59,163 nt of DNA, taken from NCBI GenBank assembly GCA_036517395.1, contig DATDWN010000001.1:1-59163 (forward strand), read 5' to 3'. The stretch is from Minisyncoccota bacterium (lineage in GTDB: Bacteria > Patescibacteriota > Minisyncoccia > Phycocordibacterales > DATDWN01). The notes beneath the pieces are model-generated. The model was not told the origin of the DNA. It ran no database searches and saw nothing but the letters and a program-made list of their open reading frames with translations. Numbering within the stretch: position 1 is the stretch's first letter; every line of letters starts with the position of its first letter. Made by a program: the position numbers and the translations under genes. This document shows, in pieces, positions 2,801 through 37,881 of the stretch.

Positions 2801-3216
2801 AAAAATCAAAAAACCGCCCAATGAGCGAGAATCGTTACATGTGTAACAACTACCATTCATTGGGCGGTTGGGCTAAAACCGCAAATCGGTTCGCCCGATC
2901 CTAGAACTGACAAAGTCAGTTCGGATTTAGGGGAGAAGAGTCATCCAGAGTTCCTTTGTGAGGACTAGATGTTGTAACTTAATCCAAAATAAATAAGTAG
3001 ATAGTGAGAATTAGTTTGTACACCTACTTCCTGAGGATTACCAGATGGTCTTCGAGGAGGCCTGCCAGAGGCAGGCGGGGGAGTCGTACGGCTCCCTACC
3101 CAAATGCTACGCACGGCGTGGCAATGGGTTAAAAAAGAGTACTCTGACAAAGAACCAATTCCAGAATTTCCGTCCTTTTTGTTGAAAACTTTTCAAGGAC
3201 ATTCAATCTAGGTTCT
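2801..3216 (-). ncRNA. Unclassified ~400-nt structured RNA with its own promoter and terminator
   Basis: Preceded by a consensus-like promoter (see 3223..3251). GC-rich body with several local hairpins (GGGAG-CCGTACGA-CTCCC, GCCTGCC-TCT-GGCAGGC, GAACTGAC-TTT-GTCAGTTC). Ends in a 13-bp stem (AACCGCCCAATGA...TCATTGGGCGGTT) followed by a T-run. Only a TTG-start ORF without SD overlaps. No tmRNA, SRP or RNase P signature recognised. Confidence 0.5.
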
Positions 3217-3222
3217 GATGTA

Positions 3223-3251
3223 ATTGTATTTTTTCTTAAAAGACATGTCAA
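3223..3251 (-). promoter_or_regulatory. Sigma70-like promoter for the 2801..3216 RNA
   Basis: Minus strand TTGACA (3251..3246), 17-nt spacer, TACAAT (3228..3223). Confidence 0.6.
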
Positions 3252-3390
3252 GGACACATGGGGATAACTCTTTAATTTTAGAAAAATTAAAGATCCTGAG
3301 AGTATTATCGAAGGATAGGATTGAAAATAAATTTTGTTTTTAGATAAAAGTATAGTGGATTTAGAAGTTTTTTCATAGTAAAGTTTAACA

Positions 3391-6284: not shown

Positions 6285-6344
6285 TTGACACTCCTTTGTT
6301 TAGGAACTTTATCCCGTAGTGAACTTCGCTCTACTACTGGGAAT

Positions 6345-6393
6345 CTGTTTCGTTCTTTCGAACTCATCAGGCAAAGTACACACTTTGCTACAG
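6345..6393 (-). ncRNA. Hammerhead ribozyme motif, type III topology
   Basis: Minus strand: CTGT-A | GCAAAGT-GTGT-ACTTTGC | CTGATGA | GTTC-GAAA-GAAC | GAAA-CAG. Complete catalytic core, GUA cleavage triplet (bond between 6389 and 6388). Stem III is only 4 bp. Confidence 0.7.
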
Positions 6394-6629
6394 TAAGAGT
6401 TTTTGTACGGACTCTTAAACCGTAGATACATAATTCCCAGTGTTGCATCATTTCTGGGTAGGAAATGCAAAAATTTTATCTTGCATATTCCTTCAGTTTT
6501 TGCGGTCTCGCCCTGCCTTATTGTTGAACTGGTGGCTAGCCAATTCTGATTTCGTGCAGGATCCCCGCTCACACTTTGTTTAGTGGGTTTTATTGTCTAG
6601 GAGTTGTCCTTCTCCACCAAGAGTCAAGC

Positions 6630-7173: not shown

Positions 7174-7959
7174 ATGACAACAGTAAAAACATCAAAAGAT
7201 CCACAGATTTCTGACTACCTAGTGAGGGTCATGACTAATGTTGGATTATCTAAAAATCAGGCTTGTGTATACTTGGCTTGTTTGAAACTAGGGAACGCAT
7301 CTATTTGGGATATTTCTGAAACTTCTGGGGTTAAAAGAACCACCTGTTATGTGGTTATAAATGATCTGGTATCCAAAGGCATAGCTAGTGTAGGTGGAGA
7401 TAGTAAGAAAGCTATGTATTCTGTCATCAGTCCAAATGAATTTATATTTAGTTTCAAAAACAAACAAAATCAACTAGTGGAGTCAGTCAGTGAACTAAAT
7501 GCTCTAATAAGTAAAACTTATTCCAGACCTCATCTCAGAATGTTTGAAGGGATTGATGGAGTAGAACAAGCTTATAAGCTGACTCTCAATATTTCCGAGG
7601 GAAATGAAATACTAATTTATGGAAATCCTGATGTTGTTATCAATTATCAAGGCATGATTGATAATTATTTGAGACAAAGGGTGAAAGATGGAATAAAAGT
7701 CAGAGCGATTCTGCCTGATACACTACTAGCTCGAGAAGTTATAGGGAAAGACAAGGAACAATTGAGAGAAACTCGACTCCTATCGAAAAATACTTTTGAC
7801 CAACAGACAGAAATAAATATTTTACCGGATTCAATCATTTACATCGCCCATTCGGAAAATAAACCATTTGCCACGGTTATAGAAAACTCCACTTTAGCCA
7901 GAGAAGAAAAGGGAAGGTTTGAGATTTTGTGGAGTATGGCAAAACTAGAAGATGTTTGA
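7174..7959 (+). CDS. TrmB-like transcriptional regulator
   Basis: 261-aa ORF. N-terminal winged HTH (LSKNQACVYLACLKLGNASIWDISETSGVKRTTCYVVINDLVSKGI). Paralogous to 17577..18338. Confidence 0.75.
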   Translation: MTTVKTSKDPQISDYLVRVMTNVGLSKNQACVYLACLKLGNASIWDISETSGVKRTTCYVVINDLVSKGIASVGGDSKKAMYSVISPNEFIFSFKNKQNQLVESVSELNALISKTYSRPHLRMFEGIDGVEQAYKLTLNISEGNEILIYGNPDVVINYQGMIDNYLRQRVKDGIKVRAILPDTLLAREVIGKDKEQLRETRLLSKNTFDQQTEINILPDSIIYIAHSENKPFATVIENSTLAREEKGRFEILWSMAKLEDV

Positions 7960-8287: not shown

Positions 8288-8545
8288 ATGACATTTATCT
8301 ATACAAAGCAGTTTGTTAAAGATCGTAAAAAACTATCTAAACCAATACAAAATAAAATAATAGAACGCCTTGAATTATTTTTGAAAAATCCGACTCATCC
8401 TCTTCTTAATAATCATTGGCTTAATCCTCCATGGCAAGGTCACAAAAGTATAAACGTAACGGGTGATATTCGTTTGATATATAAAGATGAAGGTTTCGCC
8501 TGTCGGTTGGTGAGGGTTGGAACACATCCGCAACTTTACTCATAA
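8288..8545 (+). CDS. Type II toxin, RelE/YafQ family
   Basis: 85-aa ORF. FVKDRKKLSKPIQNKIIERLELFLKNPTHPLLNNH...GDIRLIYK...VGTH pattern is typical of RelE/YafQ mRNA interferases. Confidence 0.75.
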   Translation: MTFIYTKQFVKDRKKLSKPIQNKIIERLELFLKNPTHPLLNNHWLNPPWQGHKSINVTGDIRLIYKDEGFACRLVRVGTHPQLYS

Positions 8546-9343
8546 ATTGGAGATACCAATGTCTAACTCGATAGGACAGTGATCGGAGCCGAGGACGGAG
8601 GGGAGGATGCTGGCTGATTTGACTTTGTTTTGGAGGGTTTTACTTACGAAAATATAGTCAATTCTCCAACCAATGTTTCTCTCTCGGGCATTGGCAAAAT
8701 GACTCCACCATGTATAGTGACCGGCGCCTTTTGTGAACATGCGAAAGGTATCGAGAAAACCCGCGTCAATCATTTTCTCTATTCCTTCGCGCTCTTCCGC
8801 GGTAAACCCCTTTTTACCAATATTTTCTTTTGGCCGAGCCAGGTCGTCCTCTGTGTAAGCCACATTTAAATCGCCACAAAATATTACCGGCTTTTTATTA
8901 TCAAGCTCTTTGACATATTCTAAAAATGCAGGGTCCCAGTGTTTGTGTCGGAGGGGGATTCGAGACAGGTCCTCTTTTGCATTAGGCGTATAGACAGTGA
9001 CTAAATAAAAATCTTTGAATTCTGCTGTTATGACACGCCCCTCGCTATTTGGGTCGCCATATTTATCCTCCATTCTGTATTTTTTTGTAATATTTTCCGG
9101 CAGACCCAAAATAGCTGACAAGGGTTTGTGCTTTGTGAAAATTGCCGTGCCACTATATCCAGCTCTTGAAGCAGAGTTCCAGTACTCCTCATACTCTGGC
9201 AAATCCACCTCACTCTGCTCTTGTTGAGCCTTGGTTTCCTGTAAACAAATAATATCCGGCTTATACTTCTCCACAAAAGGCACAAAAAGCCCTTTCTTGT
9301 AAACTGCCCGTATGCCATTTACATTCCAAGAGATAATTCGCAT
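8540..9343 (-). CDS. xth: Exodeoxyribonuclease III
   Basis: 267-aa ORF. MRIISWNVNGIRA...ICLQETK...GDLNVA...SDHCPI signature of the EEP/ExoIII family. Confidence 0.9.
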   Translation of the reverse strand: MRIISWNVNGIRAVYKKGLFVPFVEKYKPDIICLQETKAQQEQSEVDLPEYEEYWNSASRAGYSGTAIFTKHKPLSAILGLPENITKKYRMEDKYGDPNSEGRVITAEFKDFYLVTVYTPNAKEDLSRIPLRHKHWDPAFLEYVKELDNKKPVIFCGDLNVAYTEDDLARPKENIGKKGFTAEEREGIEKMIDAGFLDTFRMFTKGAGHYTWWSHFANARERNIGWRIDYIFVSKTLQNKVKSASILPSVLGSDHCPIELDIGISNL

Positions 9344-11447: not shown

Positions 11448-12011
11448 CTATTTTTGTGGAGCAAAACCAATTTTATTTTTTGGTTTTTCTTTTTCTGTGA
11501 TTAACTGACGAATAGCGTCAAAAACAGCGCTGAACTGATGGTCATATTTCTTCTCTAAATCGTCCAACCTACGGGCAATATCTTTGTGCGATAGCATTAA
11601 TTGACGAATCCGAACAAAAACACGCATGATAGCAATGTTCACTTCGATTGCCTTGTTGCTGTTCAAAACACTGGAAAGCATGGCCACACCTTGTTCTGTA
11701 AAAACATATGGCAAGTAGCGTCTTCCACCGTAATCCAAACTTGAGGTCGCAATTTGCGACCTCAAGTTCAAGGTCACAAATCGTGATCTTGAAGAAATAA
11801 GATCCTCAGTTTCTTTTATACTAAGTTGAAACATAAAATCTTTTGGAAATCTTTTTTTATTTCTTTTGACCGCCTCGTTTAATCTTTTGGTTGATACTCC
11901 ATACAGTTTGGCCAAATCACTATCCAACATGACTTTATGCCCACGAATAAAATATATTTTTCTTTCGATAAATTCAGTCGGAACTAGGGATTTAGAATTG
12001 TTTTTTAGCAT
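11448..12011 (-). CDS. ORF6N (KilA-N-like) domain protein
   Basis: IERKIYFIRGHKVMLDSDLAKLYGVSTKRLNEAVKRNKKRFPKDFMFQL...GGRRYLPYVFTEQGVAMLSSVL. Paralog of 33836..34408. Confidence 0.8.
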   Translation of the reverse strand: MLKNNSKSLVPTEFIERKIYFIRGHKVMLDSDLAKLYGVSTKRLNEAVKRNKKRFPKDFMFQLSIKETEDLISSRSRFVTLNLRSQIATSSLDYGGRRYLPYVFTEQGVAMLSSVLNSNKAIEVNIAIMRVFVRIRQLMLSHKDIARRLDDLEKKYDHQFSAVFDAIRQLITEKEKPKNKIGFAPQK

Positions 12012-17576: not shown

Positions 17577-18338
17577 ATGATTGATAAATATCTAGAAGAT
17601 GCGGGGCTTTCGGATAAAGAAGTGGCCGTATATTTGCACCTAGTCCAGGTGGAACAGGCCTCTGTAGTCGAACTGGCTCAAAAAACCAAAATAAAAAGGC
17701 CGACTGTTTACACCATACTCGACTCACTTTCAAAAAAGGGTTTAGTTAGCGAAATAGAGTATGACAAAAAAACTAAATATCTAGCTGAACCACCAGAAAG
17801 GTTAAAAACATTTATTGAGAGAAAAGAAATGTCTCTAAACGAACTAAAGGATCGTTTCGTTAAAGATGTGATACCACAAATAAAAAGCCTACAGAGAGAG
17901 AGCGGAGAGAAACCAATAGTAAGATATTTCTCTGGCAAAGAGGGAATAGTTAGTTTGCAAAACAATATATACTCCGGATCCCCAGATGGTTCTCCAATTT
18001 ATATACTTTATCCAAAGGATCTTTTAGATGAATCATTCAAGGATGAAGAAACAGATAAGTACAAAAAAACAAGAACAGGTATAGGAATAAAAGCGAAAGT
18101 CCTCTATAACTGGACAAAGGGGGAGAAGCCATCAGACGAATTGGCTGAAAGAAAGAAGGTTGACGAAAAAAAATATCCATTCTTCGCCGATATAACAGTA
18201 TATAAAGACAAAGTCAGAATTAGTATTTTAGGTAAAAAATTATCTGGAATATATATTGAGAGTAAGGACTTTGCTGAAACGTTGAAAAGTCTTTTCAATC
18301 TAGCCTTTGATAATCTAAAAAATAATTCGGATAAATAA
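17577..18338 (+). CDS. TrmB-like transcriptional regulator
   Basis: LSDKEVAVYLHLVQVEQASVVELAQKTKIKRPTVYTILDSLSKKGLV winged HTH. Paralog of 7174..7959. Confidence 0.75.
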   Translation: MIDKYLEDAGLSDKEVAVYLHLVQVEQASVVELAQKTKIKRPTVYTILDSLSKKGLVSEIEYDKKTKYLAEPPERLKTFIERKEMSLNELKDRFVKDVIPQIKSLQRESGEKPIVRYFSGKEGIVSLQNNIYSGSPDGSPIYILYPKDLLDESFKDEETDKYKKTRTGIGIKAKVLYNWTKGEKPSDELAERKKVDEKKYPFFADITVYKDKVRISILGKKLSGIYIESKDFAETLKSLFNLAFDNLKNNSDK

Positions 18339-18344
18339 GTCGAG

Positions 18345-18626
18345 GCCCGACCGAGTGAGGAGAAGCGATTCCCCATCCCTCGGCCGAGCCCCTGTGTTGC
18401 GATTCACTTCCCACCCCTTCGGAAGGGAGTGAACCTACTAGTCGAGCATCTTGCTCTCTTTCTTCTGGCCCCCTCCTACGTGGGGCCAATGAGACGAAAC
18501 TACGACTCTATAGTGAACACATGACTTGTTTTGGTGGAACTTCTGTCCCGCCCCGATCTGCGCTCTCAAAGGCAGCAGTATTATCGGGGCGGTCAGGCCA
18601 CCTTAGTCATGCATGGACACCTCCTG
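18345..18626 (-). ncRNA. Unclassified GC-rich RNA convergent with the TrmB-like gene (tentative)
   Basis: Minus-strand promoter TTGACA (18660..18655), 16 nt, TATACT (18638..18633). Hairpins CCGCCCCGAT...ATCGGGGCGG and GGCCCC...GGGGCC. Only 3-5 codon ORFs follow the AGGAGG. No clear terminator. Confidence 0.35.
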
Positions 18627-18806
18627 CCGACCAGTATATACCCCTCGTTTTATTTGTCAAGTTTAAATATTAAATGTTTATAAAACTGTTTAAAGAAGTG
18701 TCAAATTTAGTATAAATCAGTCAGTCTCGATTATCAATCATAATGTATAAAATGGCTTTATTTAGAGCTATTTTTAGTGTAGTAAGAAAGAAAATGTCAG
18801 AAGTAC

Positions 18807-18835
18807 TTGACAGAAAATACGAATAGGTATATACT
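18807..18835 (+). promoter_or_regulatory. Sigma70-like promoter of the 18.8-21.0 kb hammerhead unit
   Basis: TTGACA (18807..18812), 17-nt spacer, TATACT (18830..18835). Confidence 0.6.
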
Positions 18836-19273
18836 ATCTCCAGAATCAAAACATTGAAAGTCAGGACGGTTTGACAGATGTCTCAGCTTTTGCTTCCACT
18901 TAGGCGCCTGGATCGCACAAATTAGTTGCGAGAGGCCCTAGGCGGGAGCAAAAGCTTCCAACAAGACTATGTCACAGGTACAAATCCTGATTGGCGCTGG
19001 GATTGCTGTCCACTCGTTTGTGGATGGCGCCCGAGTGTCGCGGCCGAAGCTTCGGGAAACCGAAGTGGACGCCCTCGCCCATGCCCTGTGGCTTGAAAAC
19101 CACGGTCAGCAGAAGCGAGCTCTGAAGTATCTGGAAGAATATCTCCAGAGAAACAGAGGCAATACTTGCCACTTAGGTGGCGGCCGGGGTGTTATCGCAG
19201 TCCTGGGAACAGAAAATGCGTACGCGGTTGGTTAACCGAGAAACAAAAATAACCCAGTTGGCTTGCCAACTGT

Positions 19274-19326
19274 ATCTGTCGTCCGATGTGTGTCGGGCTT
19301 GATGAGTTCAAAAGAACGAAACAGAT
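19274..19326 (+). ncRNA. Hammerhead ribozyme motif, type III, variant core
   Basis: ATCTGT-C | GTCCGA-TGTGTG-TCGGGC | TTGATGA | GTTC-AAAA-GAAC | GAAA-CAGAT. Same architecture as the other two copies, but position C3 reads U (or CUUGAUGA with an extra U). Confidence 0.55.
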
Positions 19327-20072
19327 GTTCCTTAAAATTTTGAAAAATAACTTCGTGGCCATGTTACTGAATCTCAACTTTTTAGATTCAGTAACATGGC
19401 CATGGAGAGCCAGATAGTCCAGCGATGGACGATTCGTCTCGGACAGCACGACCGAGGCGGGGTTGTATCGAAAGATATAATCCAAATCTCCACATATGTG
19501 GTTAAGAGGAGGGTCTACCAAACCCGAGGCCTCTCAGCCACATATGTTCGTAGCGTTTGGCGATGCTACGAAAGTTAGAAGACGAAACAGGCCCGAGGAA
19601 GTGACTGTCCGAAGGGTTTCTGATGAAAGTCAGAAGTGTGCCAACACCTGTTAGTTGGAAAGTCAGTGGCTAGGCTTAGGGACCGCAAGTCTCTTTGCTA
19701 AAGCCTCCCCCATTACTGACACAGTGCGGTCGCAAATTTGCAAAAATTTGCGAAGGCAAAGTTGGGGGGAAACCAAGAGCGTAGAGCCAGACCTCATCGT
19801 ACAGAGGGAGAGTGGATTAAGCCCCACTCATGCGTGAAACCCCGGCCAGGGTGAATCGCAATAAGCTCTTGGTGGATATGGTGGGCAACCGGCCGTCCCA
19901 AAAGGACACAGGTTGTGGTTAAAAGAGTAGAACCGATCGCAAATCGGTGGTTGGAGCTCGGGGTCACCTGGGCGCAATCTACTCTGGAGGCAAAATTGAC
20001 CTTGTTTGCTTCCACCTTGTTCTTTCTTCAGGCAATAAATAAATTTGTCTGAACGTCGCCAGAACGCATCTG

Positions 20073-20127
20073 GTACTGTCGTCTGATGTGTATCAGACCT
20101 GATGAGTTCGAAAGAACGAAACAGTAC
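20073..20127 (+). ncRNA. Hammerhead ribozyme motif, type III, canonical core
   Basis: GTACTGT-C | GTCTGAT-GTGT-ATCAGAC | CTGATGA | GTTC-GAAA-GAAC | GAAA-CAGTAC. 7-bp stem III, GUC triplet (cleavage after C20080), GNRA-capped stem II. Confidence 0.8.
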
Positions 20128-20220
20128 AAGGTTTGTGTTTATTAGGGATTTCCTTAAAAGTAAATTATTTTGATAGTTTTCTTTTAAGGGAAATTCTTCC
20201 CTAGTTCTTTGAGGACACAC

Positions 20221-20619
20221 ATGACCAAAGTGACGATGGTTCTTCTCTTGGCGGCGTCGGCTCTCTTCGGCGGCTGCGACAAGCTCCTCGTGGTGCCCGT
20301 CCGCGCCTACTGCGACCGAGAGGTTTCGTACACTCTCTGGAAGCAGGAGGGAAGGGCCTACCGGCTCCACCTCAACGTCGGCGCGGTGGACGAACGGGTG
20401 TGCATCGGAAATCTCGATGTCTCCCGCGAGATCAACTTGTCGCAAGATGTTTCCTCACCCGAGGAAGCGGACAAGCTCGTCGAGAAGTATCGGCGTCTTT
20501 ACGCCGAGAAACTCGCCGCTCGGCGTCCCACCATGAAGCTGGAGCTTCCCAAGCTCCCAGCCAAGAGGCCTGCGACACCCCAGTCGCAGAACCAGTGTCC
20601 AAAACCCGATCCGAAATGA
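20221..20619 (+). CDS. GC-rich putative lipoprotein
   Basis: SD GAGGA 6 nt upstream of ATG 20221. Signal peptide with lipobox MTKVTMVLLLAASALFGG-C. Lys/Pro-rich C-terminus. 93 nt downstream of the hammerhead. Confidence 0.65.
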   Translation: MTKVTMVLLLAASALFGGCDKLLVVPVRAYCDREVSYTLWKQEGRAYRLHLNVGAVDERVCIGNLDVSREINLSQDVSSPEEADKLVEKYRRLYAEKLAARRPTMKLELPKLPAKRPATPQSQNQCPKPDPK

Positions 20620-21015
20620 TCGGGTTCCCACCAGAGATTTTTTGAAAAAGAAATTTGTGGTGGGAAGGTGCGAACCTAGGAAAACCCAAGTAAGCGTCAT
20701 CGTAGAGCAACGACCTGTGCCCATGTGGCCGGATAGCCTACACACGCCGAAAGGTTAGTACTTTGTTGGAGCTCAAAGAGCAGATGCTCGCCTTCCCTTC
20801 AAATTCGTTGTCCAGGCCGGTGCAGCGGTCCGAGGACTCGAGAGGTGAAATTTGCCACCTTAGTAAGTGATGCCTCCCACTACTCCAAAAAAGTAGAAGG
20901 TGGATGGTCAGTAGAGATACTGACAATCGGGTTTAATGCGAGTGGCTTAAATCGTTTTCCAAGGAGGTGGCCACGCTCGCTAAAATAAAACCTGAACTGC
21001 ACATGTTCCTTCCCG

Positions 21016-21040
21016 AGCGCATCGACCCGATGCGCTTTTC
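21016..21040 (+). terminator. Intrinsic terminator closing the hammerhead unit
   Basis: AGCGCATC-GACCC-GATGCGCT followed by TTTT. Confidence 0.6.
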
Positions 21041-21052
21041 GTTACATAAAAA

Positions 21053-22111
21053 CTAAAATGGGTTTTTGGCGCTACGAATTTCGAAGTGTAAATGAACGCC
21101 TGTCGCTCCTTTTACAGAACCGCTGTTTCCCATTTTGCCTATGACTTGTCCCTGTCTGACGCTGTCACCTGCGGAGACCATTGTTGCACTCAAATGTCCA
21201 TATAAGGTTTGAGTACCATTGCTGTGTTTTATAACAATATAAGAACCATAACCTCCATTCCAGCCAGAGTTACGAGATATGATGACTTCACCAGAAGCTG
21301 AAGCTAAAATATTTGCCCCGTAATATGAAGCCAAGTCGACGCCATTGTGACCGTGGATGCCCTGAGTCTTTATTCCGCCGATAATTGGTCGCATGTAGTA
21401 ACCACTATAAATAGGGTACGAGGAGGATTTACTTCCTCCGCCAGAAACTACTCCAGAAACTACTCCGACTTCACCATCTGGGATAACCACAACATCCCCG
21501 ACAGCCAGTTTCGCACCAAGAGTTAAGTTGTTATATTGCAAGATTTCGTCCAAGTCGCCTTTGTAGATCTTGGCTATGCTTTGTAGTGTGTCGCCTGACT
21601 TGACCGTATGTTGGACACCGGAAATAGGCAGGATGACCAGAGTTTGGCCCACGGTTATGGTACTTCCTTTTATATCATTGCCCCAGCGTATAGTATTGAC
21701 CGAAACGCCAAACATTTTGGCGATGGCAGGTAGGGTGTCGCCTGAGTGAACAACATAGAGACTAATCTGATCTTGGTCTATGGTTTTGACATCACCTTGG
21801 ACTTGGGCGTCCGGCAAAAGAGAAGTTCCTCCAACTATAGTAGCGCTGTCTTTTGTACTCGAAGCACTCTGATCTGGAGAGATAGTCGCTTGAAGCAAAG
21901 CCATGTTTTGAGAGTTTGGTTGTATCTCTTCGGTCTCGGCGCTAACTGACGAAAAAAGGCTAGATATAAAAGAAAAAACGCTCGCATTAGCGTGAAGTGG
22001 CAATAAAAGCGTCGAGAGGAGAGTGAAAGCTAAAACCAAAGACGCCCATATGTTCACCGTATTTTCGCCTGATCCCGCGCTTCGAAAATATCCTAAACAT
22101 TTTCTCAGCAC
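21053..22111 (-). CDS. LysM-domain M23 family peptidoglycan endopeptidase
   Basis: Two LysM repeats (YVVHSGDTLPAIAKMFGVSVNTIRWGN; HTVKSGDTLQSIAKIY). M23 motifs HNGVDLA and GVHLHFEIR. Confidence 0.85.
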   Translation of the reverse strand: MLRKCLGYFRSAGSGENTVNIWASLVLAFTLLSTLLLPLHANASVFSFISSLFSSVSAETEEIQPNSQNMALLQATISPDQSASSTKDSATIVGGTSLLPDAQVQGDVKTIDQDQISLYVVHSGDTLPAIAKMFGVSVNTIRWGNDIKGSTITVGQTLVILPISGVQHTVKSGDTLQSIAKIYKGDLDEILQYNNLTLGAKLAVGDVVVIPDGEVGVVSGVVSGGGSKSSSYPIYSGYYMRPIIGGIKTQGIHGHNGVDLASYYGANILASASGEVIISRNSGWNGGYGSYIVIKHSNGTQTLYGHLSATMVSAGDSVRQGQVIGKMGNSGSVKGATGVHLHFEIRSAKNPF

Positions 22112-30569: not shown

Positions 30570-33083
30570 ATGAACTTAATTAACAAAATAAACATAAGAA
30601 AAACTTTTACGGGCCGCGGTCTGCTTCTAACGGGATTAATACTGGTTGTGGTGGGGGTATTTAGTTATGCGGGTAAAGTGGATGCGGAGGCTCCGACAAC
30701 GCCTTTACCTTCGACCCCAACCACTGGCACAATGACTAATTTTCCAACGGCAACTCCGACAGGAACAACGGCCGCACCAGATCCTTGTGCTTCCGAAGGG
30801 GTAGGACTTGCTTATGATGCCTGTAGAAATGCAAAATCAGCAGAAGAAAAAGGCCAACAATCCACTGGTTTCTTTCATTGGTTAAATCCATTCGAATGGG
30901 GACCGGCTTTATTAGGCTGGTTAGCTTACATAATACTCCAAATAATGGGTTTAATTCTCGGATTGGCTGGATTAATTCTGAACTTTGTCATAAAAACAAC
31001 AATTGTGGATATGTCGGCAAACATAAACAAGATGGAGGGCATAAATATAGCCTGGAAAGTTCTCCGAGACATAATGAACATCGGCTTTATATTTCTCCTG
31101 GTCTATGAGGCCATACTCCTTATCATCGACCAAGGAAGCATCGCCAACATAAAAAAGTTTATTACGGGCATAGTCCTAGCTTCGCTTCTCATAAACTTTA
31201 GTTTGTTTTTTACAAAAGTAATTATAGACGCATCAAATGTGGCAACAGTAGGTTTGTATAACAGCATACTTTCTGACACTGGAGCAGTGGATGCCACGAG
31301 CGGACTTTCAAACGCTTACCAGCAAGCTCTGGGCCTTCAGGGATTTTTTGCTCTAGGTGGGATTAAGGCCTTTTCTTCTCTGAGTGGTGGAGGCGATAAT
31401 TATAAAATGCTTACTGTTGGGCTCATGGCTTCTGTGCTATTTCTTATTACCTCTTTCGTATTTTTTTCTGTCAGTGTAATGTTTGTAGTCCGATATATCG
31501 TGCTCATAGTCCTCATGGTTTTGTCACCAATAGCCTATATGGGCATGGCTTATCCCAGTATGGGAGGAATAAAAAAATACGCCGGTCAATGGTGGGAAAG
31601 TTTATGGGGACAAGTCCTTTTTGCTCCAGTTTTTATGCTTATGACATGGGTCGTATTAATCCTTATAACAAGCCCTGGGTTTACGGGTATTGCCCTGGAT
31701 CCCGCGAAGTGGACAGCTTTTGCTGGTGGAACAGACCCATCGAATACGGGTTCCATTAATCTATTTTTTAACTTTGCCCTTGTTATAGGGCTAGCCATCG
31801 CATCCCTAGTCATATCCAAACAGTTTGCCACCCAAGGTTCAAGTCAAATCGGCAAACTTTCGGGAGAAGCTATGTCATTTGCTGGTGGGGCGGTAATGGG
31901 AGGAACTGCAAGACTACAGAGAAACACTCTCGGCAGGTGGGGAGCTAGCCAAGCAAATAACGAGGAGTTAAAGAAGAAAGCGGCGGAAGGCAATGTTCGT
32001 GCTCGTATGACACTTGCCGCGGCAAACAAGGCGGCAACAAGCAGTTTTGATGTTCGTGCGACAAATAAATTTAGTTCATTGGCAAAAACGTCGGGGGTAG
32101 ATTTTGGCAAAGTTGATAGTAAGAAAGAAAACTACAAAGCCATACGAGAGGAGGAAGTTAAAAAAGCCGAAGCAAAAGCAAAACAATACAAACCATCTGA
32201 CGCCGCATACGCAGAGGCAAAGGAAAAAGACAGGGTGGCCAAAGAGGCAGGAGAAGCGGCGGATGTAATGGCAAAGAATCTTAATACCGACGAATGGAAG
32301 GCGAGTGCTGAAGGTAAGGCTGAGAAAGCAAAGGCCGACCTTGATAAAGCAAACGAAAAAGTTACTGAGGCTGAGGCACAGCTAGTGGAAAAAGAGAAGG
32401 AAATGGCAGAAGCTATTACCGATGAACAGAAAGCTATTGTGGAAAGAGAGATAGAAGCACTGCAAGTGAGCCTCGACAGGAAAAAGGCTGATTCTAGAAC
32501 ATTGACTGATTTGGTAGACAGAAGCCAACCAGCACTTCTCGCTGCCCAAGCAAAGAGAAAAGAACTAAAAGAGATGAGGGATGCGTCAAAGGGAGACAAT
32601 GAATCTGCTCTAAATAGTGAGTACCAGAGACGAGTTGGACTTGTAGCCGCCAGAGTTGGACACGAAGATACAGATGCAGCCAAGAAAGCAAGAGCAAGGC
32701 TGGATAGCGGAGAGGTCCTGACGGAGGAGAAGAGAGCAGAACTCACGGAAACAGTGAAAAGAGAAAGTTTTGACACAGGAGGAAATAAAGCTATGAGGGG
32801 TCTGAATCATATCGTTCGTGGAACAACGAGTACTATCTTCGGTGGTTCAATGCCAATGAGTAAAAAAGAAAGAGAAGCAGTGGCAAGAAAGATTAGAGGA
32901 GTTGCAAAAGAGAAGACAAAGAAAGAAAAGGCGCAAGATGCTGCTCTAGCGGCGTACTTGGAAGAAGAGGAGGAAAAGAAAACAGCGAGCGGGGTCTCAC
33001 CATCAGCAGCGGCAGAACCAGCTCCAACTGCACCAGCCCCACCACCTCCACCGACTCCAACTCCACCACCAGCAGGACCTTAA
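30570..33083 (+). CDS. VirB6/TrbL-like polytopic membrane protein with long charged coiled-coil tail
   Basis: 837-aa ORF. Signal/TM, then about 7 TM helices. C-terminal Lys/Glu/Ala-rich region and a Pro-rich end (PAPPPPPTPTPPPAGP). Confidence 0.6.
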   Translation: MNLINKINIRKTFTGRGLLLTGLILVVVGVFSYAGKVDAEAPTTPLPSTPTTGTMTNFPTATPTGTTAAPDPCASEGVGLAYDACRNAKSAEEKGQQSTGFFHWLNPFEWGPALLGWLAYIILQIMGLILGLAGLILNFVIKTTIVDMSANINKMEGINIAWKVLRDIMNIGFIFLLVYEAILLIIDQGSIANIKKFITGIVLASLLINFSLFFTKVIIDASNVATVGLYNSILSDTGAVDATSGLSNAYQQALGLQGFFALGGIKAFSSLSGGGDNYKMLTVGLMASVLFLITSFVFFSVSVMFVVRYIVLIVLMVLSPIAYMGMAYPSMGGIKKYAGQWWESLWGQVLFAPVFMLMTWVVLILITSPGFTGIALDPAKWTAFAGGTDPSNTGSINLFFNFALVIGLAIASLVISKQFATQGSSQIGKLSGEAMSFAGGAVMGGTARLQRNTLGRWGASQANNEELKKKAAEGNVRARMTLAAANKAATSSFDVRATNKFSSLAKTSGVDFGKVDSKKENYKAIREEEVKKAEAKAKQYKPSDAAYAEAKEKDRVAKEAGEAADVMAKNLNTDEWKASAEGKAEKAKADLDKANEKVTEAEAQLVEKEKEMAEAITDEQKAIVEREIEALQVSLDRKKADSRTLTDLVDRSQPALLAAQAKRKELKEMRDASKGDNESALNSEYQRRVGLVAARVGHEDTDAAKKARARLDSGEVLTEEKRAELTETVKRESFDTGGNKAMRGLNHIVRGTTSTIFGGSMPMSKKEREAVARKIRGVAKEKTKKEKAQDAALAAYLEEEEEKKTASGVSPSAAAEPAPTAPAPPPPPTPTPPPAGP

Positions 33084-33087
33084 AAAC

Positions 33088-33834
33088 ATGGATACAGAAA
33101 CACTAAACAAAATGCCTGATTATGTGAAGAACTTGCCGAAAGCCGTGCAGGATTTGATTTTTGATGGTGTTTGGGAGGAAAGAACAGCAGAAATTGCCAA
33201 GAAATATTCTCTTAGTGACACCCAAGCAGATTCACTAATAAATACAGTGCTTTTGGTTATGATTGGACTAGAGGATCCTGATACATTCCTAGAAACTATC
33301 ATCGCCGACCTCGGAATTTCTCGACTTCTTGCTGAACAGATAAATGAGGATTTAGAAACTAGGGTTTTTGAGTATGCGCTACGAACAGTAGAGAAGAAAG
33401 AGGAAATAATGTCAAAATCCAAACCTCAAATTTCTAATGAAGTTCATGGTTTACCTATGTCGGACATAGGGAGAAAAAAACCAGAACCCTTCCAAATTAT
33501 GGCAAGGACTCCCCTTGGCACAGAACCCAAGGTGCCTGAAATCAAACCCGAAATTTTGCCTATGATAGAGGAGGACCCGCCTTCGCAGGGCTTCAGCCCG
33601 CTACGCCAAAGCGAGAGCGAGACGAGCGAGGCAAGGGGAGAAAAAGTTCACATAAATAGACCTGAAGCAGTCCAGAGACCGGTTGAAGTTCCAAGATTTA
33701 CAGGGGCGCCAATAGAAGAAGAGAAATCAACTATTCCAGTCAATCTACCGACAGCTCCAGAGCCACTAAAACCGGAACCAGTTAAAATAGATCACAAATA
33801 TGTGGTGGATCCGTACAGGGAAAACATTGAGTAA
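33088..33834 (+). CDS. Hypothetical protein carrying an in-frame REP palindrome
   Basis: 248-aa ORF. Codons for GLPMSDIGR are the 17-bp palindrome at 33454..33470. Confidence 0.65.
   Translation: MDTETLNKMPDYVKNLPKAVQDLIFDGVWEERTAEIAKKYSLSDTQADSLINTVLLVMIGLEDPDTFLETIIADLGISRLLAEQINEDLETRVFEYALRTVEKKEEIMSKSKPQISNEVHGLPMSDIGRKKPEPFQIMARTPLGTEPKVPEIKPEILPMIEEDPPSQGFSPLRQSESETSEARGEKVHINRPEAVQRPVEVPRFTGAPIEEEKSTIPVNLPTAPEPLKPEPVKIDHKYVVDPYRENIE
33454..33470. repeat. REP-like palindrome CCTATGTC-G-GACATAGG (copy a, intragenic)
   Basis: Perfect 8+1+8 palindrome, the same as the copies flanking the RAYT-like gene. Confidence 0.85.
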
Positions 33835-33835
33835 T

Positions 33836-34408
33836 ATGAAACAGAAAAAAATGCCCACAAAAGTAGTTTCCATCCCGGTCGAAATTATAGAGCGACGAAT
33901 TTATCTAGTTCGTGGACAAAAAGTTATGCTTGATAGTGACTTGGCAGACTTGTACCAAGTTCTTACAAAAAACCTAAACAAGACAGTTCGAAGGAATCTT
34001 GATCGTTTTCCAAAAGATTTTATGTTTCAATTAAACAAGGAAGAAGTCACGAACTTGAGGTTCCAATTTGGAACCTCAAGTTCAAGGTCGCAATTTGAGA
34101 CCTTGAACAATACCTATGGTGGTCGTCGTTACTTACCCCATGTCTTCACAGAACATGGTGTCGCCATGTTATCTTCTGTGCTAAATAGCAAGCGAGCCGT
34201 GCAAATGAATATTTTAATAATTCGCGCTTTTGTAAAATTAAGAGAAATGCTAGCAAACAATAAAGAGCTGGCTGGTCGTATAGAGAAAATAGAAAATACC
34301 CAGAAAAAACATGGGTCAGTTATAAACTTACTTGCTTCAGAAATTGATAAACTAAAAATTCCACCACCATTAAAAAAGAAGGAACAAATCGGTTTTAAAC
34401 CAAAATAA
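33836..34408 (+). CDS. ORF6N (KilA-N-like) domain protein
   Basis: IERRIYLVRGQKVMLDSDLADLYQVLTKNLNKTVRRNLDRFPKDFMFQL...GGRRYLPHVFTEHGVAMLSSVL. Start at MKQKK directly after the previous stop. Confidence 0.8.
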   Translation: MKQKKMPTKVVSIPVEIIERRIYLVRGQKVMLDSDLADLYQVLTKNLNKTVRRNLDRFPKDFMFQLNKEEVTNLRFQFGTSSSRSQFETLNNTYGGRRYLPHVFTEHGVAMLSSVLNSKRAVQMNILIIRAFVKLREMLANNKELAGRIEKIENTQKKHGSVINLLASEIDKLKIPPPLKKKEQIGFKPK

Positions 34409-34420
34409 TAATAAAAGGCC

Positions 34421-34855
34421 ATGCGCTACCAAGTACCACAATTTATAGAAATAGAGGACAAGGTCATAGGGCCTTTAACCATAAAGCAGTTTATATACCT
34501 CGTTGGTGGAGCGGGAATGTCTTTCATCATGTACTCCTATCTGCCTATTTATATATCCCTAATACTGATAGTTGTTATTATTCCACTATCACTTGCTTTG
34601 GCTTTTTATAAAATAAACAATAAACCATTTATTGACTTTCTCGAATCGGCTTTTCTTTTCTATACCAAAAAAAATCTCTACATTTGGAAAAAAGAACCCA
34701 AAGAAATAGTAAAGAAAGATGTGGCGACACCGGCAAATACAGAGGTCTATGTGCCAAGACTTTCTGACAGCAAACTAAAGGAGCTGTCATGGACGCTGGA
34801 TATAAATGAGAATTTAAATCCACTGACGGGGAACGATGGAAAGAATACGAAGTAA
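34421..34855 (+). CDS. PrgI-family (VirB3-like) T4SS membrane protein
   Basis: MRYQVPQFIEIEDKVIGPLTIKQFIYLVGGAGMSFIMY followed by a second TM helix. Typical of the PrgI family in Gram-positive-type T4SS. Confidence 0.7.
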   Translation: MRYQVPQFIEIEDKVIGPLTIKQFIYLVGGAGMSFIMYSYLPIYISLILIVVIIPLSLALAFYKINNKPFIDFLESAFLFYTKKNLYIWKKEPKEIVKKDVATPANTEVYVPRLSDSKLKELSWTLDINENLNPLTGNDGKNTK

Positions 34856-34961
34856 TTTTCAGTTTTCAATTTTACAATTTTCAATCAATGTTTCAATTTA
34901 CAATTTTGAAAATTAATTCATTGTAAATTCAATGAAAATTGAGAATTGTAAATTGAAAATT
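34854..34961. repeat. Family A palindromic intergenic element (copy 3)
   Basis: AATTTTCAGTTTTCAATTTTACAATTTTCAATC...GAAAATTGAGAATTGTAAATTGAAAATT. Confidence 0.75.
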
Positions 34962-34977
34962 ATGTTATAATTATTCC

Positions 34978-35616
34978 ATGCCCGTCTCATCCAAAGCCAC
35001 ACAAGAGTTCGTTCCGATAAAAGAAGTGCGTGACGGCATTGTTGTTTTGAAAGATGGCTCTATGCGAGGTGTTGTTTTGGCATCGTCTCTTAACTTTTCT
35101 CTTAAATCCGAGGATGAACGCAACGCCATCATCCTGCAGTTTCAGGATTTTCTAAACTCTTTGGATTTTTCTATACAAATATGCATCCAGTCTAGAAGGC
35201 TAGATATACGGCCGTATATAGCCCTGCTAGAGGATAGGTATAAAGAGCAGATAAATGATCTTATGAAAATACAAACTCAGGAATACATAGAGTTCATACG
35301 CAAATTTACCGAGACAACAAACATAATGACAAAAAGTTTTTTCATTATCGTTTCCTACGATCCGGCAATGATAAACATAAAAAGCGGAGGCGTGGCTGGG
35401 TTTTTCAAAAAGAAATCAGCGGGAGAGGAGCTACAGGCAAAACAAGCGGGGTTTGAAGAAAACAGAACCCAGTTGGAACAAAGGGTTTCTGTGGTCGAGC
35501 AGGGATTGTCCAGATGCGGAATACGGGTCATACGTCTGGGAACAGAGGAGGTCATAGAGCTGTTCTACAAAATATTTAATCCTGGGGATGCTGAGAAGCC
35601 GATAAAGCTAAGTTGA
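34978..35616 (+). CDS. T4SS-associated protein resembling a stand-alone VirB4 N-terminal domain
   Basis: 212-aa ORF. VPIKEVRDGIVVLKDGSMRGVVLASSLNFSLKSEDERNAIILQFQDFLNSL parallels the N-terminal region of conjugative VirB4/TraE-type ATPases and of the next large ORF. No Walker motifs. Confidence 0.5.
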   Translation: MPVSSKATQEFVPIKEVRDGIVVLKDGSMRGVVLASSLNFSLKSEDERNAIILQFQDFLNSLDFSIQICIQSRRLDIRPYIALLEDRYKEQINDLMKIQTQEYIEFIRKFTETTNIMTKSFFIIVSYDPAMINIKSGGVAGFFKKKSAGEELQAKQAGFEENRTQLEQRVSVVEQGLSRCGIRVIRLGTEEVIELFYKIFNPGDAEKPIKLS

Positions 35617-35648
35617 AAGTGTGAAAGTAGAAAGTGTGAAAGTGAGGA
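35612..35648. repeat. Family C (GTGTGAAAGT) repeat, left arm around the four-helix-bundle gene
   Basis: GTTGAAAGTGTGAAAGTAGAAAGTGTGAAAGTGAGG. Complementary to 36027..36063. Confidence 0.75.
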
Positions 35649-35677
35649 GATAAAAATAGAAAGTTGAAAGTAATGCA

Positions 35678-36028
35678 ATGAAAATAGAAAAATTTGAAGA
35701 TATGCAAACATGGCAAAAAAGTAAGGGTTTAGCGATAGAGATATACCAGTGTTTTAAATCTTGTAGAGATTTTAGCTTCAGAGATCAAATTCAAAGAGCA
35801 ACAATAAGCATCTCCAACAACATCGCAGAAGGCTTTGAAAGATTAGGAAATAAAGAATTTAGAAAGTTTTTATACATTTCAAAAGGCTCATGTGGTGAGG
35901 TTAGATCAATGTTATACTTAAGTTTAGACTTTAAATATATCTCTCAGAAAGATTTTGACAGACTTAACTTTTCAACGACAGAAATCTCAAAGATGTTAGC
36001 TGGTTTTATTAAAAAGATGGTTATTTAA
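35678..36028 (+). CDS. Four-helix-bundle protein (23S rRNA intervening-sequence protein family)
   Basis: 116-aa ORF. W..S..L...IY......F....F..QI.RA..SI..NIAEG pattern (QIQRATISISNNIAEGFERLGNKEFRKFLYISKGSCGEV). Confidence 0.8.
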   Translation: MKIEKFEDMQTWQKSKGLAIEIYQCFKSCRDFSFRDQIQRATISISNNIAEGFERLGNKEFRKFLYISKGSCGEVRSMLYLSLDFKYISQKDFDRLNFSTTEISKMLAGFIKKMVI

Positions 36029-36063
36029 CTTTCACACTTTTAACTTTTTTCTTTCACACTACA
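36027..36063. repeat. Family C repeat, right arm
   Basis: AACTTTCACACTTTTAACTTTTTTCTTTCACACTACA, ending 1 nt before the VirB4 ATG. Confidence 0.75.
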
Positions 36064-37881
36064 ATGTCAATCTTTGATTTTTTAAAACCGAAAAAAGAGG
36101 AGGCTCAAATATCTACGATATTGCCGCAGGAGATATATGACTCTGGCACTTTGGAATTGAAAGATATTATTGCTCCAAGCGCTCTCGAGGTGACGCCGAA
36201 AGAAATAAACCTCGGCGAAAAGGTTCTCCGAAGTTTTTTCGTTATTTCCTATCCGAGATATTTGTCTGAAAACTGGTTCGGACCGATAATAAACCTCGAT
36301 AAAATATTTGATATAGCTATTTTCATACAACCGATAGAAACGGCCCAGGTTTTAAGAACATTTCAGAAAAAAGTGGCCGAGGTGCAGAGCCAAATAAATA
36401 CTCGCGAGGCAAAGGGCCTAGTCAGAAACCCAATGCTCGACACAGCATATCAAGATTTGGAAAATTTGCGTGATGAGCTACAGCAAGCACAGGAAAGACT
36501 TTTTGATGTTGGACTTTACATTACTATATATGGAGACTCAAGTTCGGAACTGGATAAAATAGAATCCGAAGTCAAATCAATTCTCGAGGCCAAACTGGTT
36601 TACGTTAAACCAGCGCTTTTCCAACAAGAACAGGCTTTCAAAACCACTATTCCTCTCGGAACTGACGGTCTGCAGGTCTATAGCAAACTAAATTCATCAC
36701 CACTGTCGTCCCTTTTTCCTTTTGTATCATTTGACCTGACTTCGGATAAAGGTATTTTGTATGGGATAAACAGGCACAACTCGTCTTTGATTCTTTTTGA
36801 CAGATTTTCTTTGGAGAATTATAACTCGATTTGCTTCGCTAAGAGCGGATCTGGTAAAAGTTTTATGACTAAACTGGAGATATTGCGAACTCTGATGTTT
36901 GACGCCGATGTCATCGTCATAGATCCAGAAAAAGAGTACGAGTACCTAGCCGAGGCGGTGGGTGGTAGATACTTCAACATTTCTCTTAACTCCGAGCACC
37001 ACATAAATCCGTTTGAACTCTCTGCGCCGAGCGAAGGGGAGTCGTTTTCAAATGTTTTGCGTTCAAACATTATAAACCTTGTTGGGCTTTTCCGAATCAT
37101 GATGGGAGGACTTTCGGCAGAGGAAGACGCTATAATCGACCGAGCTATTACGGAAACTTACGCGCTGAAAGACATCACAGCAGACTCCAACTTTGAAAAC
37201 GTTGAGCCGCCACTGATGTCTGATTTTGAGCTGGTTCTCTCTGGTATGGAAGGAGGGGACTCTCTTGCCCAGAGACTGTCGAAATACACCCGTGGCACAT
37301 GGGCTGGGTTCATAAATAGACCAAGTAATGTTGATATAAATAAGAAGTTTATCGTCTTTTCTCTGCGCGATATGGAGGATGAATTGAAACCAATCGCCAT
37401 GTATATAGTCATGCACTATATATGGAACATGATCAGGAAGAAACTGAAAAAGCGACTACTTGTCATAGACGAGGCGTGGTGGATGATGAAGTCAGAAGAC
37501 ACGGCCTCTTTCCTTCTCTCTCTGGCCAAACGCGGAAGAAAATATTTCCTTGGCCTAGCTACAATAACCCAGGACGTGGACGACTTCATGAAATCTCCAT
37601 ACGGTGTGCCTATTATTACAAACTCTTCTATTCAGATCCTTTTGAAACAATCACCAACTGCCATAGATAAACTACAAGCCACGTTTAACCTGACAGATGA
37701 GGAGAAATACCTGCTACTAGAGTCCGATGTTGGTGAAGGTATTTTCTTTGCCGGTCTCAAGCACGTGGCAATAAAAGTCATCGCTTCCTACACAGAAGAG
37801 CAAATAATTACATCTGACCCTTCACAAATTCTCTCGATAAAGAAAGCCAAGGCGGAGCTGGAGGGTAGTGCGGAAAAATAA
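36064..37881 (+). CDS. virB4: VirB4-like T4SS ATPase
   Basis: 605-aa ORF. Walker A AKSGSGKSF, Walker B LLVIDEAW, TQDVDDF. The N-terminal domain is typical of Gram-positive conjugative ATPases. Confidence 0.85.
   Translation: MSIFDFLKPKKEEAQISTILPQEIYDSGTLELKDIIAPSALEVTPKEINLGEKVLRSFFVISYPRYLSENWFGPIINLDKIFDIAIFIQPIETAQVLRTFQKKVAEVQSQINTREAKGLVRNPMLDTAYQDLENLRDELQQAQERLFDVGLYITIYGDSSSELDKIESEVKSILEAKLVYVKPALFQQEQAFKTTIPLGTDGLQVYSKLNSSPLSSLFPFVSFDLTSDKGILYGINRHNSSLILFDRFSLENYNSICFAKSGSGKSFMTKLEILRTLMFDADVIVIDPEKEYEYLAEAVGGRYFNISLNSEHHINPFELSAPSEGESFSNVLRSNIINLVGLFRIMMGGLSAEEDAIIDRAITETYALKDITADSNFENVEPPLMSDFELVLSGMEGGDSLAQRLSKYTRGTWAGFINRPSNVDINKKFIVFSLRDMEDELKPIAMYIVMHYIWNMIRKKLKKRLLVIDEAWWMMKSEDTASFLLSLAKRGRKYFLGLATITQDVDDFMKSPYGVPIITNSSIQILLKQSPTAIDKLQATFNLTDEEKYLLLESDVGEGIFFAGLKHVAIKVIASYTEEQIITSDPSQILSIKKAKAELEGSAEK

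Follow-up and report, generated by a model that had tools for sequence, protein, structure and literature searches.

Type III hammerhead ribozymes (Rfam RF00008) are found in viroids, satellite RNAs, plant retrozymes and some bacteria and phages. Prophages can carry several same-sense, intergenic copies per transcription unit (PMC3088659, PMC6155905), where they flank small non-conserved open reading frames (ORFs). Tandem hammerheads of this kind, flanking genes, cut themselves both in vitro and inside E. coli cells; Perreault et al. 2011 proposed that they process long transcripts into single units (PMC3088659); a review still calls the biological role of bacterial and phage hammerheads open (PMC6155905). 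Here we describe a type III hammerhead, hammerhead B, at positions 20073-20127 of a 59,163-nucleotide (nt) stretch of a Minisyncoccota bacterium (contig DATDWN010000001.1; hereafter the window), together with a second copy, hammerhead A, and the large RNA that lies between them. Hammerhead B is best explained, with a probability of roughly 0.78, as an active-type ribozyme that would act as self-cleaving punctuation within one long transcript.

Like the prophage arrays, the locus carries several same-sense, intergenic hammerheads per putative transcription unit. Unlike those arrays, one of the flanked units is a conserved structured RNA of ~750 nt and not a gene, and the host is a chromosome of the Patescibacteria (candidate phyla radiation, CPR) with synteny across lineages. 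It also differs from viroid-type hammerheads, in that its copies reside as DNA in a bacterial chromosome and not in an RNA replicon. The ribozyme itself thus adds a member to an established class, and operons with multiple hammerheads have been described before. New are the host phylum, with which hammerheads had not been connected in the literature library that was searched, the consistent failure of the Rfam threshold to register the subclass and, above all, the cargo RNA.

Hammerheads of the window

Re-reading of the sequence confirmed the stems, the GUC triplet and the core that a preliminary description of this DNA had reported on the plus strand. The motif reads GUACUGU-C-GUCUGAU-GUGU-AUCAGAC-CUGAUGA-GUUC-GAAA-GAAC-GAA-ACAGUAC. 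Stem III is open and has 7 bp, including the A15.1-U16.1 pair; the GUC triplet places C17 at position 20080. Stem I has 7 bp and a 4-nt loop, stem II has 4 bp and a GAAA loop, and a GAAA strand completes the core. Every invariant core nucleotide is present, as had been stated (CUGAUGA, GAAA, the A15.1-U16.1 pair, and a C rather than a G at position 17). Folding of the 55-mer gave the three-way junction as the minimum free energy (MFE) structure (-17.4 kcal/mol, z -2.98); loops close stems I and II, stem III is open, and the junction was retained when 20040-20225 was folded in context. Core (with H17), junction and stem arrangement are those of RF00008 members, and so are loops on stems I and II that could dock.

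RF00008 (Hammerhead_3) aligned hammerhead B end to end, over model positions 1-54, with 44.9 bits and an E-value of 6.5e-9 on 301 nt or 6.5e-8 on 3 kb. The core pattern TGATGAG-N10-CGAAAC occurred three times in the window and in none of 100 shuffles, which, with the E-value of 6.5e-8, excludes a chance match. The Hammerhead_3 search recommended in the preliminary description returned hammerhead B, with a score below the 48.5-bit gathering score of the family. For this reason a default Rfam scan of the window is silent on hammerhead B and reports a tRNA only. A sub-threshold covariance-model score was one of two results that the preliminary description had named as jointly counting against the motif; we ascribe it to the Rfam model and not to the motif. 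As judged from the letters, 20073-20127 supports assignment to the type III hammerheads in every respect, confirming a genuine hammerhead that is predicted to cut its own RNA.

Three elements had been overlooked: a copy 800 nt upstream (hammerhead A), a copy at 6.3 kb on the opposite strand (hammerhead C), and the structured RNA between the first two. It is these that set the purpose of the ribozyme. Hammerheads A and B form a 58-nt direct repeat, 83% identical and in the same orientation, with a start-to-start spacing of 800 nt. The core of hammerhead A reads UUGAUGA, with C3 replaced by U, and so departs from the full type III core at one position. U3 was identical in three independent assemblies of this organism (L001-L003) and is therefore not a sequencing error; the orthologues of hammerhead A in three other lineages carry C3. 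Hammerhead C has a complete core, with A17. RF00008 misaligned it, at 24 bits, while R1, a covariance model trained on 46 copies, all of them from viral contigs, gave it 70.1 bits (E 5e-19). Over the window, R1 found hammerheads B (71.8 bits, E 1.5e-19), C (70.1 bits) and A (67.3 bits), with E-values of ~1e-18 to 1e-19, and no further match.

The viral copies behind R1 came from 83 IMG/VR viral contigs that matched the exact pattern TGATGAGTTC-N4-GAACGAAAC; nearly all matches were type III hammerheads. The pattern was derived from stem II of the window, which biases the set towards look-alikes, and other stem II sequences were present in many additional copies of the same contigs. The subclass has a short stem III (cuGUC...GAAACag), often of 3-5 bp, and a 7-bp stem I that varies freely yet is always paired, in the loop context U-G(U/A)GU-R (U-GNGU-R); its stem II has 4 bp and is capped by an A-rich tetraloop. 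The stems vary, but members of the subclass strongly conserve loop 1 (U-GUGU-A/G) and loop 2 (RAAA), as would be predicted for a tertiary docking contact between the loops of stems I and II, of the kind that gives fast cleavage at low Mg. By these features hammerheads A, B and C belong to a type III subclass known from at least 83 viral contigs.

In a general-architecture scan of the fetched viral loci, 110 of the 128 copies found were intergenic; the median distance was 38 nt from the preceding ORF on the same strand and 44 nt to the following one. A viral contig had up to four copies, spaced at gene length. None of the ~35 hammerheads that scans had found in 12 related loci (viral L016, L017, L027, L034, L042, L052, L054, L057, L058, L061 and L069; Patescibacteria L102) reached the RF00008 gathering score. 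The threshold is thus blind to this subclass, set apart from RF00008 members by its own stem I and II signature and scores just under the cut-off, in every locus checked. Since the whole subclass falls below it in these loci, the sub-threshold score of hammerhead B is not evidence against the motif. Comparison of the locus with viral DNA yielded little else: a blastn search with 18500-21500 found nothing similar among 50,697 phage records, and in blastn and tblastx comparisons of the island with the 83 viral loci the ribozymes were the sole matches.

A large structured RNA bracketed by hammerheads

The plus strand between hammerheads A and B holds no ORF >60 aa. The MFE of the 801-nt stretch 19280-20080 was -330.6 kcal/mol; shuffled sequences gave -240.8 +/- 7.9 (z -11.4). 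We recovered the RNA from three further lineages, namely L090/L095 (a Patescibacteria metagenome-assembled genome, MAG), L096/L098/L101 (a Candidatus Paceibacterota bacterium MAG) and L099/L100, at 79-84% nucleotide identity, as compared with 67-74% for the flanking coding DNA. Indels of 1, 2 and 4 nt distinguish the lineages within the RNA. These non-triplet indels, together with the lack of an ORF >60 aa, rule out a coding reading of the region.

RNAalifold on the four-sequence alignment predicted 212 pairs in 30 helices, with 97.3% of cells paired. Compensatory changes were present in 45 of the 212 pairs. Column shuffles gave 19.3 +/- 3.1 such pairs (0/500 reached 45), and slid controls, in which partners were shifted by one to three columns, gave 2-6. 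That the fold is under selection is not in doubt; its fine structure, modelled from four sequences, is provisional.

No Rfam 15 family matched 19327-20072 even at E<=10, spurious hairpin matches aside, and ARAGORN detected no tmRNA. An RNase P identity, suggested by eye from a GGAAAGUC-like motif, was without Rfam support, as were group I and II introns, GOLLD, ROOL and OLE. The RNA shares with the large bacterial structured RNAs OLE, GOLLD, ROOL and raiA a length of ~700 nt, many covarying helices, a narrow phylogenetic range and small membrane-protein genes as neighbours, and differs from them in sequence and structure, none of them giving a match in Rfam 15. OLE, GOLLD, ROOL and raiA are not known to be flanked by self-cleaving ribozymes. 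The viral contigs contained no match to two conserved 20-23-mers from the large RNA, and an nhmmer search with the RNA profile found none in the small-ORF neighbour contigs L102-L108. An 18-mer genome scan gave two real loci; two other candidates from it, L094 (Tritonibacter) and L097, were rejected as chance matches after reading or aligning. A metagenome scan added one new lineage only. The large RNA is therefore a conserved, undescribed cargo, and it is the new part of the finding.

In all four lineages a hammerhead lies directly at both ends of the large RNA. Among ten distinct Patescibacteria hammerhead copies the core is invariant in nine, the exception being hammerhead A with its U3. 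Their stems differ: stem I occurs as GUCUGAU/AUCAGAC, GCAAAGU/ACUUUGC and CAGAGAU/AUCUCUG, and stem II as GUUC/GAAC, GUCC/GGAC, GCUC/GAGC and GAUCU/AGAUC. In the ten-copy alignment 100% of cells were paired and 9 of 15 pairs changed on both sides, as against 3.7 +/- 1.3 in shuffled and 1-3 in slid controls, a count that is somewhat favoured by the fitting of the alignment to the model.

These data bear on the idea that a phage or mobile element once inserted at this site and left hammerhead B behind as an inactive remnant, or that the motif is a chance match. Such a reading would draw on the GC-rich nature of the island relative to the genome (GC, guanine plus cytosine), the abundance of the subclass in viral contigs, the core mutation of hammerhead A and the sub-threshold Rfam score. 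Chance is excluded as above, and a relic would not be expected to keep its core in nine of ten Patescibacteria copies and its stems fully paired through compensatory changes. Synteny of the locus, moreover, extends to lineages with lipoproteins of only 46% identity, which argues for long purifying selection. We consider a relic or chance match very improbable.

The position of the downstream hammerhead speaks to its role. It lies at a fixed distance from the 3' block of the large RNA (CCAGAACG..CUGGUACUGUC), while the gap to the following ORF is 93 nt in the window and ~430-520 nt in L090, L100 and L096. Hammerhead B therefore goes with the end of the RNA rather than with the start of the lipoprotein gene. 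This argues, from sequence comparison, that its main role is to make the 3' end of the large RNA; in this species it would also provide the 5' leader of the lipoprotein mRNA. The longer gap reflects a second structured RNA of ~330 nt that, in these three lineages, follows the downstream hammerhead and precedes the next ORF; the window lacks it. This module has 120 predicted pairs, 29 of them with compensatory changes, and the L090 copy had no Rfam match.

Hammerhead B might instead be a mere insulator of the 5' untranslated region (UTR) of the lipoprotein mRNA, with the upstream RNA a separate entity that happens to share the transcript. RiboJ, an engineered insulator, consists of the sTRSV hammerhead and a hairpin upstream of a ribosome-binding site (RBS). 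This is the order of parts at 20073-20220 (type III hammerhead, hairpin, RBS), so that hammerhead B would be its counterpart in nature and would work in the same way. In the window, a small envelope-protein gene begins 58-93 nt downstream of both hammerhead B and hammerhead C, with a hairpin in the interval, and the median of 44 nt to the next ORF in viral contigs agrees with this role. In three of the four lineages, unlike in RiboJ, another RNA module (~330 nt) separates the orthologous ribozyme from the RBS and places it 430-520 nt from the next ORF; its position is fixed relative to the 3' end of the large RNA; and a ribozyme is conserved at the 5' end of that RNA too. We hold a pure insulator to be improbable, and prefer self-cleaving punctuation that would make ends for both the large RNA and the lipoprotein mRNA.

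The set of flanked units varies. L090 has three hammerheads in a row and L102 has two. The L102/L103 island has the same promoter-like site, leader and small ORF as the window, and two hammerheads, which there accompany small-protein cassettes and no large RNA. We therefore regard the framework as a variable hammerhead-punctuated operon, with the large RNA as one of its cassettes. L090 also carries, inserted upstream of its large RNA, an extra AT-rich unit of ~430 nt (8318-8792) bounded by a hammerhead of its own, which brings its hammerheads to three; this extra hammerhead has a UUU triplet and the stem III CUUUU/AAAGG. Cassettes appear, from this arrangement, to be gained together with one ribozyme copy.

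Proposed transcript processing and possible fate of the released RNA

Transcription would start near 18835 and proceed through a leader, a small ORF, hammerhead A, the ~750-nt RNA, hammerhead B, a hairpin and the lipoprotein gene. A single primary transcript of ~2.2 kb is suggested by the conserved near-consensus promoter-like site and by the absence of a recognisable terminator before ~21040. Each hammerhead would fold while being transcribed and cut after position 17, that is, after C19280 in hammerhead A and C20080 in hammerhead B. The cut in B would generate the 3' end of the structured RNA, with a 2',3'-cyclic phosphate, and a lipoprotein mRNA with a 5'-OH that begins with the compact ribozyme body, followed by the hairpin and the RBS. 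The cut in A, probably slower because C3 is U, would generate the 5' end of the structured RNA. Both cuts together would free an 800-nt RNA (19281-20080) from its coding neighbours. A hairpin precedes each hammerhead, so the upstream fragment would end in a 3' hairpin and a cyclic phosphate, ends that may stabilise it in the cell. Hammerhead C would do the same job in another small operon, on the opposite strand, where it separates two genes.

Several points weigh against this reading. The Rfam score of hammerhead B, 44.9 bits, is below the family's gathering score. Co-transcription is argued from two things: one site resembles a consensus promoter, and no terminator was recognised. U3 of hammerhead A faces G8, so a wobble replaces the C3-G8 pair of the active core, whereas natural variants normally covary to U3-A8 (PMC3088659); in this species hammerhead A may consequently be slow or inactive, and the 5' end possibly made otherwise. 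Finally, the L102 island carries the ribozymes without the large RNA, so they do not need that cargo.

After the two cuts, ligation by an RtcB-type ligase or by the reverse hammerhead reaction could close the 800-nt RNA into a covalent circle, a chromosomal counterpart of retrozymes and viroid-like RNAs. The geometry is that of retrozymes and viroid-like circular RNAs, in which same-sense hammerheads (type III in plants) bracket a noncoding structured RNA of 600-1000 nt: here too same-sense copies bracket an 800-nt noncoding and highly structured RNA. The predicted products are suited to ligation, since the cleaved 3' end (..CUGUC) is able to pair over 4 bp with ACAG of the 5' ribozyme body, and the ends left by hammerheads (5'-OH and 2',3'-cyclic phosphate) are substrates of RtcB. 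Unlike in retrozymes, the locus has no long terminal repeats (LTRs), its direct repeat being the 58-nt ribozyme only, at 83% identity, and there is one copy per genome region and no dispersed family. Sequence divergence separates the two ribozymes, and covariation in the stem III of one is independent of that in the other. Each ribozyme keeps its own fifth stem III pair (U-A in A and A-U in B; G-C versus A-U in L100), which would mismatch in a chimeric junction ribozyme and so points to selection on the linear precursor; the independent covariation mildly argues against a junction ribozyme. The L090 ribozyme at the RNA 5' end even has the stem III CUUUU/AAAGG, incompatible with the downstream one. 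Neither RtcB nor reverse transcriptase was among the Pfam-scanned ORFs of the window. For tandem prophage hammerheads, circular or spliced products were deemed possible, and none was detected by Perreault et al. (PMC3088659). A circle is accordingly unlikely in our estimation, if a little less so than a pure insulator.

We return to self-cleaving punctuation of one linear transcript, from which the released product would be a stable structured RNA, possibly tied to the co-transcribed envelope proteins. A more ambitious proposal, which we advance tentatively and think has rather less than an even chance of being correct, is that the hammerhead pair is the maturation machinery of an undescribed class of ornate RNAs of ~700-800 nt restricted to a clade of Patescibacteria. 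Their ends would be defined by ribozymes, they might be circularised, and they would act as a stable RNA or ribonucleoprotein, for example at the envelope. The envelope is suggested as the site because genes for a lipoprotein and small membrane proteins appear to be co-transcribed with the RNA.

Neighbouring elements and significance

Coordinates are collected in Table 1. The locus occupies a GC-rich island of 2.7 kb, 18340-21050, in which 200-nt windows reach up to 62% GC, as against 33-44% for most of the rest of the genome. The GC-rich setting that the preliminary description had given hammerhead B applies to this larger island; 200-nt windows around the motif have only 37-47% GC. Upstream lie genes for a CCA-adding enzyme, Fic, exonuclease III, a XerC-type recombinase, ComM, MazF and TrmB, and downstream genes for an M23/LysM peptidase, UvrD, KsgA, UbiA and type IV secretion-like proteins. 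The identical locus occurs on groundwater metagenome scaffolds. Given these ordinary chromosomal genes, the Patescibacteria homologues and the lack of a phage blastn match, the gene context places the locus on a CPR/Patescibacteria chromosome, not in a phage.

Table 1. Features of the hammerhead locus in the window and of their counterparts in related loci (positions without a locus name are those of the window)
Feature	Position	Strand	Basis or remark
Hammerhead C, type III, GUA triplet	6343-6395	-	Structure-aware scan; predicted cut A6389/G6388
Promoter-like site TTGACA-17-TATACT	18807-18835	+	11/12 consensus matches; would drive whole unit
88-aa ORF, doubtful coding at 3' end	18969-19235	+	ORF list; gene called in L093
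Conserved noncoding block, 3' hairpin CAGUUGGC-UU-GCCAACUG	19183-19272	+	Directly 5' of hammerhead A
Hammerhead A, type III	19274-19326	+	Rfam 24.9 bits, E 0.031; R1 67.3 bits; predicted cut C19280/G19281
Structured noncoding RNA	19327-20072	+	Fold, covariation; predicted excised product 19281-20080, 800 nt
Hammerhead B, main motif, type III	20073-20127	+	Complete core; predicted cut between C20080 and G20081
Conserved hairpin	20149-20192	+	Inverted repeat between hammerhead B and RBS GAGG 20211-20214
Lipoprotein gene, 132 aa, lipobox LFGGC	20221-20619	+	Downstream cistron, syntenic in L090
Hammerhead B orthologues	L090 9520-9571; L096 1210-1262; L100 4559-4610		R1 model
Second RNA module	L090 9573-10000; L096 1263-1700; L100 4611-5078		Covariation
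Recurring 5'-UTR design	20149-20220; L092 500-586; L102 1870-1954, 2690-2780; L096 1625-1690, 2220-2287		By eye

The promoter hexamers and their spacing recur in L090, L096, L100 and L102, as seen by eye, and no recognisable terminator was found between the promoter-like site and ~21040. The 88-aa ORF is doubtful as a real gene: it had no Pfam match, and its last ~50 nt overlap the conserved block, which is noncoding in other lineages. It takes the place of a conserved 42-43-aa ORF (MRDLL..HYLLP..) of those lineages. The block itself is conserved with L090 8230-8370 and, by eye, with L100 3664-3750 and L102 3490-3570; its counterparts in L100 and L102 each sit just before a hammerhead.

The hairpin between hammerhead B and the RBS is conserved in L090, L099 and L100 and forms a covarying helix (alignment columns 415-456). 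Beyond it, the lipoprotein gene that the preliminary description had placed 93 nt past the motif was found as described, with its start at 20221. The encoded N-terminus (MTKVTMVLLLAASALFGGC...) has a signal peptide and a lipobox (...ALFGGC), and the nearest named homologue is a "Patescibacteria group bacterium" MAG protein at 46% identity. The hairpin at 20625-20666, after the gene (UUCCCACCAGAG...UUGUGGUGGGAA), lacks a U-tract and so falls short of a canonical terminator; L100 and L102 have the hairpin too. The following 380 nt (20667-21045, plus strand) are GC-rich and have blocks in common with L102 3880-4120 (GCCGGUGCAGCGG..., GGAGGUGGCCA...); their folding is only modestly above shuffles (z -2.7).

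Most small ORFs of the islands are preceded by a recurring 5'-UTR design, recognised by eye: a long AT-rich hairpin, a short GGGAAA-N-UUCCC hairpin, AGUUCUUUGAGG and, a few bases further, the start codon. The design has the look of a common element for the control of translation. An integron-like cassette array was considered in view of the recurring hairpins and the nearby XerC-type integrases, and was rejected since the recurring GTTCTTT misfits the attC core GTTRRRY. In L102, two paralogous ORFs of ~60 aa (1955-2137 and 3176-3361) start with M..LSDEELSEVVVGGP and M..LSDEELGKVVVGGP, which resemble the double-glycine leader of secreted bacteriocin-type peptides. If they are such leaders, the islands may, by this analogy, encode secreted peptides with membrane-protein and lipoprotein partners resembling immunity proteins.

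A second near-consensus promoter (TTGACA-16-TATACT, 18660-18633, minus strand) faces away from the hammerhead operon. Next to it, 18338-18628 on the minus strand is GC-rich and ORF-poor, folds well (z -5.8) and ends in a terminator-like hairpin, making it a candidate divergently transcribed small RNA; the promoter-proximal part of this unit is conserved in L090, L100 and L102.

The putative operon of hammerhead C spans ~7130-6100 on the minus strand and is divergent from a second TrmB-family gene (7174-7959). The ribozyme lies in it between an ORF of ~105 aa (ATG 6944) and, 58 nt downstream, a small membrane-protein ORF (ATG 6284, MFPWFIIVAMVSF...). An MFPW... ORF like the one beside hammerhead C adjoins a hammerhead in L102 (3376-3532). 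Elsewhere in the window we noted two ORF6N-domain genes, at 11448-12011 (minus strand) and 33800-34408 (plus strand), and a plus-strand cluster at 30570-37881 in which a weak TrbL_3 match from a precomputed gene table and a TraG/VirB4-like ATPase suggest a type IV secretion or conjugation-like apparatus.

Literature searches returned nothing relevant on hammerheads in Patescibacteria/CPR, on hammerhead-flanked bacterial noncoding RNAs or on noncoding RNAs in Patescibacteria. Standard annotation would miss the subclass hammerheads in all 12 loci checked. With ribozymes fixed at both ends of an RNA, the locus is a tractable case for the role of bacterial hammerheads, in which the idea that hammerheads define RNA ends becomes directly testable, and it is possibly a natural counterpart of the ribozyme-flanked RNA cassettes of synthetic biology. 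If the hammerhead pair is indeed the maturation machinery of a new RNA class, this would be the first natural bacterial ribozyme-flanked noncoding RNA cassette, and its RNA would act in ultra-small episymbiotic bacteria.

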